Assembly (NCBI GenBank): GCA_951406725.2
Contig: OX597827.1
Span: 62,682,001-62,746,000, forward strand
Source: Octopus vulgaris
Lineage: Eukaryota
DNA length: 64,000 bases
Reading direction: 5' to 3'
This document shows, piece by piece, positions 4,223 through 58,620 of the stretch. Both the position numbers and the translations under genes were made by a program. The first letter of the stretch is position 1; the number at the start of each line of letters is the position of its first letter. The notes below the pieces were generated by a model. It saw only the letters and a list, made by a program, of their open reading frames with translations, searched no databases and was not told where the DNA came from.

Positions 4223-4263
<41 letters not shown>

Positions 4264-4266
<3 letters not shown>

Positions 4267-4469
4267 CCTCGTGTGTAGCGTTGGCGATTTTTTTCCTCTG
4301 TTTTCCCTTCTTTGGATCTTTCCTTCTCCTATGTTTCCGACGAAGAGCTCCACTCGAAACGTTAAACCCTCCTTCTTTCCTTCTTTCCTGAGCGTCCAAT
4401 AATACTATATTTGTTCCACGTCCTCGCGTTGTTGTGTTTTTTTTGTGCTTTCTTGTTTGGATTAACTTT
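4264..4469 (+). mobile_element. ~205 bp PLE terminal (pLTR-like) unit with a hammerhead-like motif, in (TA)n
   Basis: Near-identical to 10880-11084 and to the reverse complement of 23644-23860. Motif GTTT-CCGACGA-A-GAGCtccACTC-GAAACGT-T-AAAC at 4333-4367. Confidence 0.75.
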
Positions 4470-10503: not shown

Positions 10504-11079
10504 AGGCGCATGCGTAGCTGTGGTAGGAAGCTTGCTTCCCAACAACATGGTTCCCGGTTCAGTACCACTGTGTGGTACCTTGGGCAAGTGTCTTCTACTA
10601 TAACCCCAGGACGACCATAACCTTCTGAATGGATTTGGTAAACGGAAACTGAAAGGAGCCCGTCGTATATGTAACTATATGTGGGTGGTTGGCGATTTTT
10701 TCCCTCCGTCTTCAATTTCTTTTGAACATTCCTCTGTCTCCTGTTTCTTGAAGAAGACACCTTTTCGTTCCTTCCATGAGCGTCTTATTAATACTTTGCA
10801 TGTATAACGTCCTCGTGTTGTTGTTTATTTCTTGTTGCATTTTCCTCCGTTTCTTTTTGTTGTGTATATATATATATATGTGACCTCGTGTGTACCGTTG
10901 GCGATTTTTTTCCTCTGTCTTCCCTTCTCTGGATCTTTCCTTCTCCTATGTTTCCGACGAAGAGCTCCGCTCGAAACGTTAAACCCTCCTTCTTAACCTC
11001 CTTTCCTGAGCGTCCAATAATACTATATTTGTTCCACGTCCTCGCGTTGTTGTGTTTTTTTGTGCTTTCTTGTTTGGAT

Positions 11080-11125
<46 letters not shown>

Positions 11126-15109: not shown

Positions 15110-15300
15110 AGGTGAGAATTCACAAAACACATAAGACGAAGACAGGTGGTGTAGACAACAGACAGATGTATTAGTATAACACTCGGGAAGTGAAAAAGTC
15201 TTTAACATTTCGAGCCTATGTTCTTCCACAGAAAGAACAGGGAGAGAAATAAGGAGAGAAAATAAAGAAAGTGTAGTGGCTAACGATCTATCATAGCGAA
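15110..15300 (-). mobile_element. PLE terminal unit with a decayed hammerhead-like motif, in (TA)n
   Basis: Homologous to 48409-48620. Minus strand TCTTT-CTGTGGA-A-GAACatagGCTC-GAAATGT-T-AAAGA at 15199-15236. Confidence 0.7.
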
Positions 15301-23643: not shown

Positions 23644-23645
<2 letters not shown>

Positions 23646-23860
23646 AGTTAATCCAAACAAGAAAGCACAAAAAACACAACAACGTGAGGACGTGGAACAA
23701 ATATAGTATTATTGGACGCTTAGGAAAGAAGGAAAGAAGGAAAGAAGGAGGGTTTAACGTTTCGAGCGGAGCTCTTTGTCGGAAACATAGGAGAAGGAAA
23801 GATCCAGAGAAGAGAAGACAGAGGAAAAAAAAATCGCCAATGGTACACACGAGGTCACAT
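23644..23860 (-). mobile_element. ~205 bp PLE terminal unit (third copy), abutting a SINE family 1 head (23863-24002, minus)
   Basis: Reverse complement of 10880-11084. Hammerhead-like motif at 23752-23786. Confidence 0.75.
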
Positions 23861-24129
23861 TTTGACAGGCTTCTTTCAGTTTCCGTCTACCAAACCCACT
23901 CACAAGGCTTTGGTCGACCCGAGGCTATAGTAGAAGACACTTGCCCAAGGTGCCACGCGGTGGTACTGAACCCGAAACCATGTGGTTTGTAAGCAAGCTA
24001 CTGCTGTTTACTTATAATTCAAGGTGTTTGGAAAGAAGCCATGAAGCTTTACAGTGAAGACAACAAATTATAATAGAAAAGAAGTTAAGCCCTGAAGAAG
24101 TTACGTCATTAAAAATTCGGACCTTAGCT

Positions 24130-26919: not shown

Positions 26920-27445
26920 TTATTATTTTTTACCCTTCCTTCTTCAAATTTTCTTCCGTTTCTCGCCCAGTGTTTTCAGTACACCTAGGGCAGAGAAGCT
27001 CATTTTATGCATTCCCAGATTACACACGCAAATTCACAGGTAAACTATGTATCTAAAAAATTAATAACTAAATAAATTCATGAATGGATGTTGTTTTCAC
27101 AGCGATAATGCTCTTCTCAGTACATGAGCCATTCCAGTTAACACGATTTTTTGCACTTCCTGTAGGGATGGTAAACCTGGTATCATTTTCAAATAGGTTT
27201 TGCTTTATATTTGTACAAGTTGGCTCTAAGTCCCACCCAGAGACCTCAAGAGACAATAGGTTGGAAGTTCATGTTGTTATGCCTAGTGTGCCATATATTT
27301 GTGTTTTTTTTGGTGTTGTACTAGTGAATGTCTAAAAAAAAAAAAACGAAAACTATGTTTGTTTTAAACCTTGAGATTACATAGAAAGTATATTGCGGAG
27401 GATATGAGCAGTTCCCATGAACACTATCTTTTGAATTTCAGCCAG
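26920..27445 (-). mobile_element. 3' end and 3' UTR of an R4/Dong-like LINE
   Basis: Minus translation AEIQKIVFMGTAHILRNILSM*; ends in (TAA)-type repeat. UTR copies also at 45170-45415 and 62586-62655. Confidence 0.8.
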
Positions 27446-27625
27446 CCACCATGATTGACCGCTAGCCTCTAAAACCTTTTTTATTCTCCTGTTTAATTTC
27501 GGTTCTGTTGAAGAAGAGCGTAGGCTCGAAACGTAAAAGACTTTCTCAATTTCCCGAGCGTTAAACTAATACACCTGTTTGTTGTTTATACGCCTGTCTT
27601 CGTTTTTTGTTTTTCTGTAGATTCC

Positions 27626-27628
<3 letters not shown>
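27445..27628 (+). mobile_element. PLE terminal unit with hammerhead-like motif, ending in (TA)n
   Basis: CTGTTGAAGAAGAGCgtagGCTCGAAACGTAAAAGA at 27505-27540. Homologous to 48409-48620. Confidence 0.7.
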
Positions 27629-27699
<71 letters not shown>

Positions 27700-28462: not shown

Positions 28463-29072
28463 AGGTGTCGAGCTGGCAGAATCGATAGCACGCCGGGCGA
28501 AATGCTTAGCGGTATTTCGTCTGTCGTTACGTTGTGAGTTCAAATTCCGCCGAGGTTGACTTTGCCTTTCATCCTTTCAGGGTCGATAAATTAAGTACCA
28601 GTTACGCACTGGGGTTGATGTAATCGACTTAATACCTATGTCTGTCCTTGTTTGTCCCCTCTGTGTTTAGCCCTTTGTGGGTAATAAAGAAATAGGTATT
28701 TCGTTTGCCGCTACCATCTGAGTTGAAATTCCGCCGAAGCCGACTTTGCCTTTCATCCTTTCGGGGTCGATTAAATAAGTACCAGTTACGCATTGGGGTC
28801 GATATAATCGACTTAATCTGTTTGTCTGTCCTTGTTTTTCCCTTCTGTGTGTAGAACCATGTAGGCACTAAAGAAATAAGAATCGTTGGCGCGTCGGGCG
28901 AGATGCGTAGCGGTATTTCGTTTGTCTTTACATTCTGAGTTCAAATTCCACCAAGATCGACTATGCCTTTCATCATTTCGGGGTCGATAAATTAAGTACC
29001 AGTTGCATACTGGTATCGATCTAATCGACTGGCCGCCCTCACCCCAAATTTCGGGCCTAGAGTAGAAAAGAA
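28463..29072 (+). mobile_element. Tandem trimer of SINE family 2
   Basis: Three successive B-box/Deu-like cores. Confidence 0.85.
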
Positions 29073-41267: not shown

Positions 41268-41544
41268 GTTAAACTATTTCGGTTCGGCTCTATGCAGCTT
41301 ACAATTAAGAGAGAAAAATGTGGGTCGCAATTACTCAATTACGATTATCAGTTTTGCTCTGAATTAATCGTTTAGCAGTTGAGGTTGAAGACTAGTTCTT
41401 ACTGCAGATTCGAACCAGTTCATTCTTACTGCAGAATCAGACACATGTATACTGACCACCAAAAACATTAATCCAAAGTCATGTGCTTATAGAGAGCAAC
41501 GATATCCAACCGGCGTACTTTGTGAATATATCTAAATACTTAAT

Positions 41545-41929
41545 GTGGAGGCGCAATGGCCCAGTGGTTAGGGCAGCGGACTCGCGGTCATAGGATCGCG
41601 GTTTCGATTCCCAGACCGGGCGTTGTGAGTGTTTATTGAGCGAAAACACCCAAAAGTTCCACGAGGCTCCGGCAGGGGATGGTGGTGATCCCTGCCGTAC
41701 TCTTTCACCACAACTTTCTCTCACTCTTACTTCCTGTTTCTGTTGTACCTGTATTTCAAGGGGCCGGCCTTGTCACTCTCTGTGTCACGCTGAATATCCC
41801 CGAGAACTACGTTAAGGGTACACGTGTCTGTGGAGTGCTCAGCCACTTACACGTTAATTTCACGAGCAGGCTGTTCCGTTGATTTGTATCAACCGGAACC
41901 CTCGTCGTCGTAACCGACGGAGTGCTTCC
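41545..41929 (+). mobile_element. Full-length tRNA-derived SINE family 3 (OR1-like) with a 56 bp flanking duplication
   Basis: A box TGGCCCAGTGG, B box GGTTTCGATTCC. Direct repeats at 41489-41544 and 41930-41985. Confidence 0.9.
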
Positions 41930-42283
41930 ATAGAGAGCAAAGATATCCAACCGGCGTACTTTGTGAATATATCTAAATACTTAATACTTAACGTATACCA
42001 ATCGTATAACGAACGATATAACTTTATATCGAAGTCAAATTTATTCGAAGCATCGTATTTTGTATTCGGTTATAGAACTGGGGTTCGTATTGATTTTTTT
42101 CTTTTTGTTTTTGGACGAAATAGAATGGTATTATATATGAAAAGAGAGACATGAAAATAGTATTAAACATATGTAAATACGTGCATTTTTATATACATCC
42201 ATACATGCATACATACATACATACATACATGTATACATACATGTACATGTGTGTGTGTGCGTGTGTGTGTGTATGCATATATA

Positions 42284-48391: not shown

Positions 48392-48507
48392 GTATATATA
48401 TATATATAACGGGAAGCTTTATGAAAATAGACAAAAGACGAAGGCAGGTGGACAACAAACACACAATTGTATTAGTATGGCGCTCAGGAAATATAAATAA
48501 AACAAGT

Positions 48508-48544
48508 ATTTAACGTTTCGAGCCTACGCTCTTCAACAGAAAGA
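48508..48544 (-). ncRNA. Minimal hammerhead-like motif in the PLE 3' terminus (core CUGUUGA plus extra A)
   Basis: TTT-CTGTTGA-A-GAGCgtagGCTC-GAAACGT-T-AAA. Confidence 0.6.
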
Positions 48545-48709
48545 TGCACAGAGAGAAAAAACACAGAAAGAAGGAGAGAAAAAAATGCGTGCAGTAACTA
48601 ACGAACCAACATGGCGATCTGATTTCGGCCAGAAGTCAAAGATCAAACATGAGACGCGAGAGCGAAATTAGGGGAGATAATAGGGTTGAGTGACCAGCTC
48701 CAACATAAG

Positions 48710-48814
48710 GGTGTGTGTGTGTGTGTGTGTATGAGAGAGTATTAGTGCGTATGAGAGGTCTGGACGTGTGTATGTATAGGGTTGGTGTATGTATTAGTAT
48801 GTATTAGTATGTAT

Positions 48815-48849
<35 letters not shown>

Positions 48850-48930
48850 AGAGAGTATTAGTGCGTATGAGAGGTCTGGACGTGTGTATGTATAGGGTTG
48901 GTGTATGTATTAGTATGTATTAGTATGTAT

Positions 48931-48965
<35 letters not shown>

Positions 48966-49046
48966 AGAGAGTATTAGTGCGTATGAGAGGTCTGGACGTG
49001 TGTATGTATAGGGTTGGTGTATGTATTAGTATGTATTAGTATGTAT

Positions 49047-49083
<37 letters not shown>

Positions 49084-49190
49084 AGAGAGTATTAGTGCAT
49101 ATGAGTGGTCTGGACGTGTGTATGTATAGGGTTGGTGTATGTATTAGTATGTAGTAGTATGTATTAGTATGTATTAGTTGGTGTATGTAT
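48710..49190. repeat. ~120 bp tandem repeat, 4 copies, each containing (TG)n, within the PLE 3' UTR
   Basis: ATGAGAGAGTATTAGTGCGTATGAGAGGTCTGGACGTGTG.. occurs four times. Confidence 0.9.
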
Positions 49191-49519
49191 TAGTATGGCA
49201 CATCATATATGATGTGATGTGTAAAGTCGTGTGGTGTAGTGTGGAGAGAGGAGAAGAGGGGTAGGGGGAGAAGAGGGGGGAGGGAGGGGGAGAGAGAGGG
49301 GGAGAAGGAAGGGGAGGAGGAGGGGAGGAGGAAGAAGGAAAGAGGGAGAGGGGAGAGAGAAGGGGAGTGAGGGAGCAGAGGGAAGGGGAAGAGGGAAGGA
49401 GGGAGGGAGAAAGAGGGAAGAAGGGAAGGGGAGTATGGGTGAAAGGATGAAGGACTGAAGAACTGACTGAAGAAGTAGGGGTCGGGGGGAAAGGTAGGTG
49501 AGGAGGGGGGAGAGGGGGG

Positions 49520-49774
49520 TTAGATGAGGAGGTGGGATGAGTTGAGACCAAATGGTGTATAAGAGCGAAGAGAGAAGATTAATTCCCGTTCACGGCGCAA
49601 ACGGGAATCCGGATGGCCTCTGTGTAAGGACAAACCGAACACAGATAGGGGTTGCAAGGAGTGACCGGTGGAGCGGAAATGGCGAGAGACCGGTGTGTCG
49701 TTCGCAAGGTGGATGTCACGAAGGTGTTCCGCGAACCGGTCAGCCAAGCGGCGTCCCGTTTGTCCGATGTACAA
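49520..49774 (-). pseudogene. PLE GIY-YIG endonuclease C-terminal fragment
   Basis: YIGQTGRRLADRFAEH..PVSRHF..GHS..RLRRERELIFSLRSYTPFGLN. The frame is open to the stop; the GIY motif and RT are missing. Confidence 0.9.
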
Positions 49775-49776
49775 GG

Positions 49777-58217: not shown

Positions 58218-58620
58218 TTTTATTGCCCACAGGGGGCTAAGCGTAGAGGGGACAAACAAGAACAGACAAAGGGATTAAGTCGATTACATCGACCCCAGTG
58301 CGTAACTGGTACTTAATTTATCGACCCTGAAAAGATGAAAGGCGAAGTCGATCTCGGCGGAATTCGAACTCAGAACGTAACGTCAGACGAAATACCTATT
58401 TCTTTACTACCCACAAGGGGCTAAACACAGAGAGGACAAACAAGGACAGACAAAGGGATTAAGTCGATTACATCGACCCCAGTGCGTAACTGGTACTTAA
58501 TTTATCGACCCTAAAAAGATGAAAGGCAAAGTCGACCTCGGCGGAAATCGAACTCAGAACGTAACGTCAGACGAAATACCGCTAAGCATTTCGCCCGGCG
58601 TGCTAACGTTTCTGCCAACC
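58218..58620 (-). mobile_element. Young dimeric SINE family 2
   Basis: Two near-identical ~187 bp units. Junction GACGAAATACCTATTTCTTT at ~58387-58405. Confidence 0.9.

Follow-up and report, generated by a model that had tools for sequence, protein, structure and literature searches.

The unit that begins at position 4,264 of the 64,000-nucleotide stretch of Octopus vulgaris DNA analysed here (the window) is, judged by its sequence, the hammerhead-bearing pseudo-LTR (pLTR) of an endonuclease-positive Penelope-like element (PLE), because longer copies join the same pLTR to a PLE ORF, to its 5' UTR and to its 3' UTR. We favour, with a probability of about 0.6, the reading that the unit is such a pLTR inserted alone into (TA)n, and that its preferred 5' end would mark the 5' end of the element RNA. 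Solo pLTRs had been named as one option in an earlier reading of the sequence alone (the sequence-only reading), and this option was borne out by the parent copies, in which the unit is contiguous with the ORF.

Copies that continue beyond the unit were retrieved by a search anchored just 5' of it; they enter a CA-rich region of more than 1 kb, and their 5' ends lie at spread positions. The layout of the parent is pLTR, 257-nt 5' UTR, an ORF with reverse transcriptase (RT) and GIY-YIG domains, CA-rich 3' UTR and pLTR. In family A, to which the unit belongs, the pLTR passes through TTTATATACCGC into the 5' UTR, the ATG and a decayed PLE ORF that keeps the DKG, YIDD and KPTDSH motifs (L306, L307 and L296), and it is continuous with the 3' UTR in L121-L150. 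An RT-thumb fragment on one continuing copy led to many intact ORFs of the sister family C and to 6.2-kb tandems. The pLTRs of L199, a close relative, are 85-89% like the unit and flank the ORF on both sides, and the order pLTR-ORF-UTR-pLTR is found both in L199 and in intact family C. Partial tandems, in which pLTRs about 6.2 kb apart flank the ORF, occur together with full tandems. The minimal hammerhead lies inside the pLTR, in the sense orientation to the ORF, and variable 5' truncation, inverted 5' copies and an optional tail are all present.

The 949-aa ORF of family C combines RT with a C-terminal GIY-YIG domain and carries DKG, YIDD and a CX4CX2C linker (CSRSRCNTC). Pfam RVT_1 and GIY-YIG matched weakly, below their curated cut-offs, in families C and A', and a PDB sequence search with the family C ORF gave no relative at E<=1. 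The Neptune and Nematis clades are defined by a CX2-5CXXC linker before GIY-YIG (PMC8557442), and the PLE of family C and of the unit is of the Neptune/Nematis type by its predicted linker. Family C (L189, G000:C2:59921501-59931500; L181-L198) is young, with many intact near-identical ORFs and 6.2-kb head-to-tail tandems, and is probably still active. In these PLEs the 3' UTR consists of 1-2.9 kb of degenerate, microsatellite-like CA/CT sequence (L189:5523-8250, L199:2150-4630, window 48720-49515), in which long spurious His/Thr-rich ORFs arise and which may spread microsatellite-like DNA through the genome.

Three family A copies lie in the window (Table 1), mutually 90-96% alike in the sequence alignment. 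As the sequence-only reading had stated, each ends in GGATTAAC or GGATTAACTT (that is, GGATTAAC(TT)) before (TA)n; each carries a minimal hammerhead motif. The identical starts claimed for them were not found, the three copies beginning at different positions when the T of TGTGACC is numbered 1, and the predicted GUU site, at which that reading placed the ends of an RNA of about 200 nt, falls mid-unit in each. In copy 1 the hammerhead has stem I GTTT/AAAC, the core CCGACGA (U4C), the extra A and GAAA-CG-UU, with one stem II pair broken. An Rfam scan of the window gave nothing at gathering thresholds. For sister family B, the proposed homologous start held for the copies at 15300 and 27445, which begin near that point, but the third copy extends 1.3 kb upstream and reaches a GIY-YIG ORF remnant; its CT/CA-rich 3' UTR includes four 116-bp repeats, and its hammerhead lies at 48508-48542.

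Table 1. Positions of pLTR copies, hammerhead motifs and associated features in the window
Feature	Position	Strand	Remarks
(TA)n target 5' of copy 1	4233..4263		
Family A solo pLTR, copy 1	4264..4468	+	start +3, or -1 hidden in the TA repeat; ends GGATTAACTT
Hammerhead motif, copy 1	4333..4367	+	minimal type I; predicted cut after 4363
Older diverged relative of family A pLTR	10669..10864	+	abuts copy 2 upstream; 3' half of ribozyme deleted
Family A solo pLTR, copy 2	10878/10880..11083	+	start -1/+2
Hammerhead motif, copy 2	10950..10984	+	family majority sequence; predicted cut after 10980
Sister family B solo pLTR	15110..15300	-	start 6-7 nt 5' of the conserved ATG
Family A solo pLTR, copy 3	23645..23865	-	starts -4 to -6, fused to the end of another repeat
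Hammerhead motif, copy 3	23752..23786	-	core CCGACAA (G8A, predicted dead); predicted cut after 23756
Sister family B solo pLTR	27445..27629	+	
Sister family B 5'-truncated PLE	48408..49775	-	GIY-YIG ORF end, 3' UTR, pLTR, then (TA)n
PLE GIY-YIG endonuclease C-terminus, 84 aa	49520..49774	-	59% identity (47/80) to intact family C protein

An ATG is kept at the unit start in all families (window 10878, 15294, 27451 and 48613; L189:2140; L199:2110), and it opens a tiny frame, Met-stop in A and A' and four codons followed by a stop in B and C. Two other repeats were noticed in the window. One is a SINE-like repeat (41483-41985) with an apparent tRNA-type head (41545-41930) and a flanking direct repeat whose length, about 60 bp, is high for a target duplication; the other is a very abundant unrelated repeat in 184-bp tandem units (28511-28854 and 58219-58580), which recurs in about 20 further places.

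Copies were counted with exact 22-mer patterns. The 3' 22-mer of the unit occurs at least 4,448 times genome-wide and the unit-start 22-mer 4,176 times, while the reversed controls both gave 0. Sixty evenly placed 10-kb stretches (600 kb) contained nine copies more than 84% identical (a tenth match, at 74%, was excluded), and scaling from this sample to the 2.8-Gb genome gave an estimate of 19,000-80,000 family A copies. The genome is rich in microsatellites.

The 5' ends were examined in the first 90 of the 4,448 matches to the 3' 22-mer, all from contig C1, of which three duplicates were dropped to leave 87; the top-40 BLAST list, which favours full-length matches, was kept out of the end statistics. 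The 5' end fell within -15..+15 in 58 of the 87 copies, 25 were shorter and four were longer. Among the 62 copies reaching this 30-nt interval, 58 stop inside it, a stop rate of 0.087 per nt against 0.002 per nt in the body of the unit. Random truncation could not yield such shared starts, as had been argued beforehand. The clustering expected of an endpoint histogram was strong in this 87-copy sample, although the 5' end proved to be preferred and not fixed. The 22-mer that spans the boundary, a pattern fitting one subfamily only, has 181 exact matches, compared with 4,176 for the one at the unit start, and 8 of the 9 copies in the evenly spaced 600-kb sample start at query positions 1-13, none extending upstream. 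The 3' end is fixed at the junction of the pLTR and the 5' UTR, where the element's own continuation is TTTATATA. It takes two forms, TATATA (31/90) and TTTATA (40/90), the latter matching the element's own 5' UTR, and a TA-type repeat follows 82 of the 87 copies. AT/GT microhomology to the target blurs the positions (peak at +145).

Stopping at this point differs between families. The 5' ends of family B lie, by eye, within about -30..+12 of the conserved ATG in 18 of 25 copies, with five shorter and two reaching the ORF. In family C, 21 of 30 are at least 357 nt long, three stop at the homologous site and two start at 115 nt; the difference from family A in stopping at the site has a Fisher p-value of 4e-13, some family C rows being two ends of one element.

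The same site recurs where the unit is joined to other parts of its own element. Among 30 loci chosen by a piece of the 5' UTR, 26 join the 5' UTR or the ORF start directly to the unit, 18 of them at -21..+13. A larger set comprised 64 distinct loci, drawn from all 49 junction matches and 30 of the 46 5' UTR matches, with one further locus unclassified. Mini-elements make up 33 of these 64 (a set that overlaps the 30 loci), and they land at -21..+13 in 15 cases, at +28..+56 in 12, at -41..-57 in five and at +103 in one. No junction beyond -57 was found in the sets of 26 and 33 junctions. Because junctions to the element's own 5' UTR and ORF also cluster, the stop belongs to the template and not to the target, and microhomology to the target alone was rejected as an explanation on the same ground. 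The upstream pLTRs of the junction-bearing copies start all along the pLTR, with only 5 of 30 at -17..+15. In 30 loci selected for reaching -8, fold-backs (three) and short duplications (four) have their junctions at that point. At their other side, 23 of the 33 mini-elements break off from the 5' UTR at 203-267 nt, near the start codon at 257 (L353-L426), which hints at a short RNA of about 450 nt.

Tails bear on where copying begins. Four of the 17 rows first classed as tails were reclassed, leaving 13 downstream-primed copies, in which priming lies 42-130 nt downstream overall; 12 of the 13 end 102-132 nt into the 5' UTR. Since the tails end inside the 5' UTR, priming would have taken place inside an RNA that held both the pLTR and the 5' UTR. 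Among the 13, three copies of about 250-340 nt stop at -2, -7 and -7, and in the other ten the forward arm does not stop at the site. Five of the 13 are paired head-to-head with a unit in inverted orientation; in three of these the inverted arm stops at -9, -4 and +2. Because these longer downstream-primed copies and inverted arms also stop there, the stop appears to be set by the site and not by length. A fixed-length stop (about 210 nt) was considered and rejected: three copies of 205-218 nt proved to be head-to-head inversions, and others stopped at -2 and -7. In the head-to-head pairs (L355, L358, L367, L384 and L398) priming of one arm lies at the pLTR end and that of the other about 120 nt beyond it; since the two arms share sequence, two RNA molecules would have been used.

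The preferred 5' site reads CAKTC-NNN-ATG in one A subfamily and in family B, with TCATTC in the former and CATTC or CAGTC in the latter, each three bases 5' of the conserved ATG. Other A subfamilies have CTTT(T)C at the site, and the commonest A subfamily has an imperfect initiator match only. These motifs resemble the Inr (TCAKTY) and TCT (YYCTTTYY) initiators (PMC4581360), a Drosophila consensus that may not apply to octopus. No DPE was recognised by eye, and folding found no RNA structure at the site (z -0.28). Start sites inside the pLTR have been described for D. virilis Penelope (PMC2377424) and Chlamys-3 (PMC8557442), and internal initiation by RT on uncleaved RNA has been reported in vitro for an anole PLE (PMC11167929).

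An RNA 5' end could also arise by processing or trimming, which would leave a protein-protected fragment of about 450 nt with the priming site inside it, or the RT could stall at the site through a feature unseen by folding; in either case the site would not be where transcription begins. We consider these rather unlikely. Trimming would suit the donor points of the mini-elements, which lie about as far downstream of the priming site as the preferred 5' end lies upstream of it (about 210 nt) and suggest one RNA trimmed at both ends, and also the 30-nt width of the 5' edge and the second group of landings at -41..-57. It is at odds, however, with the initiator-like motif and its constant spacing in diverged families, and the start sites known inside pLTRs and the absence of structure at the site argue against trimming and stalling alike.

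The excess of solo units over ORF-linked copies, roughly a hundredfold (4,448 against 49 exact motifs), would fit a self-propagating non-autonomous SINE-like family with an internal promoter, transcribed into the (TA)n flank and copied in trans. Transcription by Pol III would not get past the stretch of 6-9 T that lies about 27 nt from the unit start. We give this explanation less weight than trimming or stalling, although several further observations point towards it: the ORFs seen in family A are decayed, whereas family C has intact ones; position 8 is more often a G in solos (19/51) than in long copies (2/31); and non-autonomous PLEs are known (MRC1, PMC8557442). Against it, short and long copies are equally diverged (58 solos with a median of 2.13% and 31 long copies with 2.14%, p=0.32), and no allele is private to the short copies in this small sample of one subfamily. 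The position-8 allele is also found in 4 of 4 copies linked to the 5' UTR, and resemblance to one subfamily was the criterion by which the long set had been picked. The anole PLE moreover requires sequence downstream of the RT start (PMC11167929), which the solos do not have. The self-standing non-autonomous family that the sequence-only reading had proposed is thus not upheld by equal age and shared alleles, though the enzyme may be supplied in trans. Equal age and shared alleles make the short copies look like by-products of the activity that also made the long ones. Having no 5' UTR, solo units are probably dead ends. Four contig sets guessed to be RNA, when compared with L313, contained the unit but no usable start, end or joint. 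Four pairs of loci (L211/L212, L220/L221, L250/L280 and L365/L394) share the same insertion and flanks and are segmental or assembly duplicates.

The hammerhead motif reads GUUU-CCGACGA-A-GAGC-UCC-GCUC-GAAA-CG-UU^AAAC. A relaxed descriptor matched 16 times in 664 kb and 0 times in shuffled DNA, and stem I, which lies outside the descriptor, pairs 4/4 in 15 of the 16 matches; it shows a compensatory change between families, G-C in A and C-G in B. By its sequence, the motif is the minimal PLE type (Cervera and de la Pena 2014), a type I hammerhead with which it shares stems I and II (stem I of 4 bp), the extra nucleotide after A9, G10.1-C11.1, the palindromic CG at 15.2-16.2, the lack of helix III and a mostly single, dispersed occurrence. 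It differs in having no more than 4 bp in stem II, in a U at position 17 in family A, and in the core, which is U4C in the young A, A' and C subfamilies and A6U in B; U4C was found in 42 of 58 family A solos (9 not parsed), and canonical CUGACGA in an older subfamily. The hammerhead of family C has a GUC site but a stem I mismatch. No structure was significant by z-score when the hammerhead, the whole unit, the 5' boundary and the 5' UTR were folded; for the hammerhead this is expected of a dimer- or protein-dependent motif.

This real type I motif, with its compensatory change, invites comparison with retrozymes, in which a hammerhead-cut monomer is circularised and re-inserted, and animal retrozymes are related to pLTRs (bioRxiv 2026.07.22.740005). 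Starts just past the predicted cut, in at most 5 of 81 family A copies at risk (3-13 nt after it, p=0.06) and in 4 of 30 of family C (5-13 nt after it), also suggest that cut RNA is sometimes copied. We nevertheless find a retrozyme highly improbable. Because the hammerhead sits mid-unit, with the predicted cut about 100 nt from either end, the unit ends are not ribozyme cuts and the unit does not represent a monomer running from cut to cut. Nor did the unit turn up in tandem arrays: no 205-bp period appeared in the window among the matches listed, and hammerhead units in the sampled loci are single copies, with another copy's end 45 nt or less upstream in 1 of 90. The 6-bp helix I and the helix III that are hallmarks of retrozymes are lacking, and the motif is minimal and has no Rfam match. 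The minimal type is inactive as a monomer in S. mansoni (PMC4209133), and U4C lowers hammerhead activity in vitro (PMC3088659). With the unit also directly contiguous with the PLE ORF in its parents, the ribozyme-defined, retrozyme-like monomer offered as the other option in the sequence-only reading was set aside. Solo units could also arise if the pLTRs on either side of a full copy recombined at the DNA level, an origin suggested for a few solo pLTRs of rotifers (PMC3846280). This is scarcely credible here, since recombination would keep the 5' ends of the upstream copies, which are widely spread, and since the fold-backs and varied junctions at -8 point to cDNA ends.

Compared with known systems, the octopus element agrees with endonuclease-positive PLEs of the Neptune/Nematis type (Craig et al. 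2021, PMC8557442) in its single RT and GIY-YIG ORF, CX4CX2C linker, partial tandems, pLTR with hammerhead, inverted 5' copies, tail and (TA)n targets. It departs from them in a very long, CA-rich 3' UTR of about 2.7 kb, in a tail of about 120 nt as against 30-40, and in the fact that solo pLTRs, whose start is strongly preferred, make up the bulk of its copies. Poseidon PAc of Anolis (Frangieh et al. 2024, PMC11167929) likewise has two RT starts downstream of the hammerhead, an AT-rich target and uncut RNA as the main template, whereas its starts lie in the ORF and have no target homology, the main start in octopus lying at UAUAUA, which matches (TA)n. In D. virilis Penelope (Schostak et al. 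2008, PMC2377424) the transcript comes from an internal TATA-less pLTR promoter, as we infer for octopus, in which, by contrast, no intron or DPE was recognised. Metazoan non-LTR retrozymes (Cervera and de la Pena 2020, PMC7229834; Li et al. bioRxiv 2026.07.22.740005) are also non-coding units of 200-300 nt with a type I hammerhead, related to pLTRs and in part occurring as dispersed monomers; their tandem units, canonical hammerheads and cut-to-cut circular RNA were not seen here.

Already known are the pLTR, the minimal hammerhead, solo pLTRs, the (TA)n preference and non-autonomous PLEs. The accessible part of an octopus repeat annotation reports recently active Penelope families without mention of ribozymes (PMC13282606). 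In the openly accessible literature searched, no study came to light that treats a clustering of 5' ends in solo pLTRs, a strong-stop model for PLEs or octopus PLE hammerheads; supplements, subscription papers and Repbase may already contain the family.

If the preferred 5' end does mark the end of the element RNA, a promoter within the pLTR would start the RNA at about -8. The PLE protein would nick (TA)n and prime within the RNA at the pLTR end, or rarely 100-130 nt further on, and the RT would then copy about 210 nt, through a mostly uncut hammerhead, and run off at the RNA 5' end. A jump to the 3' part of a full RNA would give a long copy or a partial tandem, and a jump to a short RNA whose end lies 200-270 nt inside the 5' UTR would give a mini-element. 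Without a jump, the solo unit would integrate, and a fold-back would be another outcome after run-off. That family C mostly passes the site needs, in this model, a family-specific efficiency of jumping or supply of RNA. Also counting against the model are the scattered starts of the upstream pLTRs, the mini-element junctions at +28..+56 and -41..-57, the ten downstream-primed copies whose forward arm does not stop at the site, and the imperfect initiator match of the commonest A subfamily. More generally, and tentatively, it is possible that PLEs use a retrovirus-like two-step copying, with priming at the pLTR, a 'strong stop' run-off and a jump to the 3' part.

The sequence itself is ordinary, one more PLE family with the usual minimal hammerhead; what makes it valuable is the statistics of its ends. 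Annotation should class such units as PLE ends and not as retrozymes or unknown SINEs. Most copies of one family here stop at a single site, and a young sister family of 99%-identical copies with intact ORFs mostly passes it; with this contrast between A and C, the run-off-and-jump model is directly testable. The formation of pLTRs and tandems was unexplained in 2008, when the D. virilis study saw no obvious mechanism that regenerates the pLTR (PMC2377424), and the later steps of PLE insertion were left unvalidated in the 2024 report (PMC11167929). If the model is true, the tens of thousands of solos, the mini-elements and the fold-backs would be a fossil record of failed or misdirected jumps, from which the start site could be read and a short RNA of about 450 nt predicted, and the two-step route would supply the missing mechanism for the formation of pseudo-LTRs and tandems.
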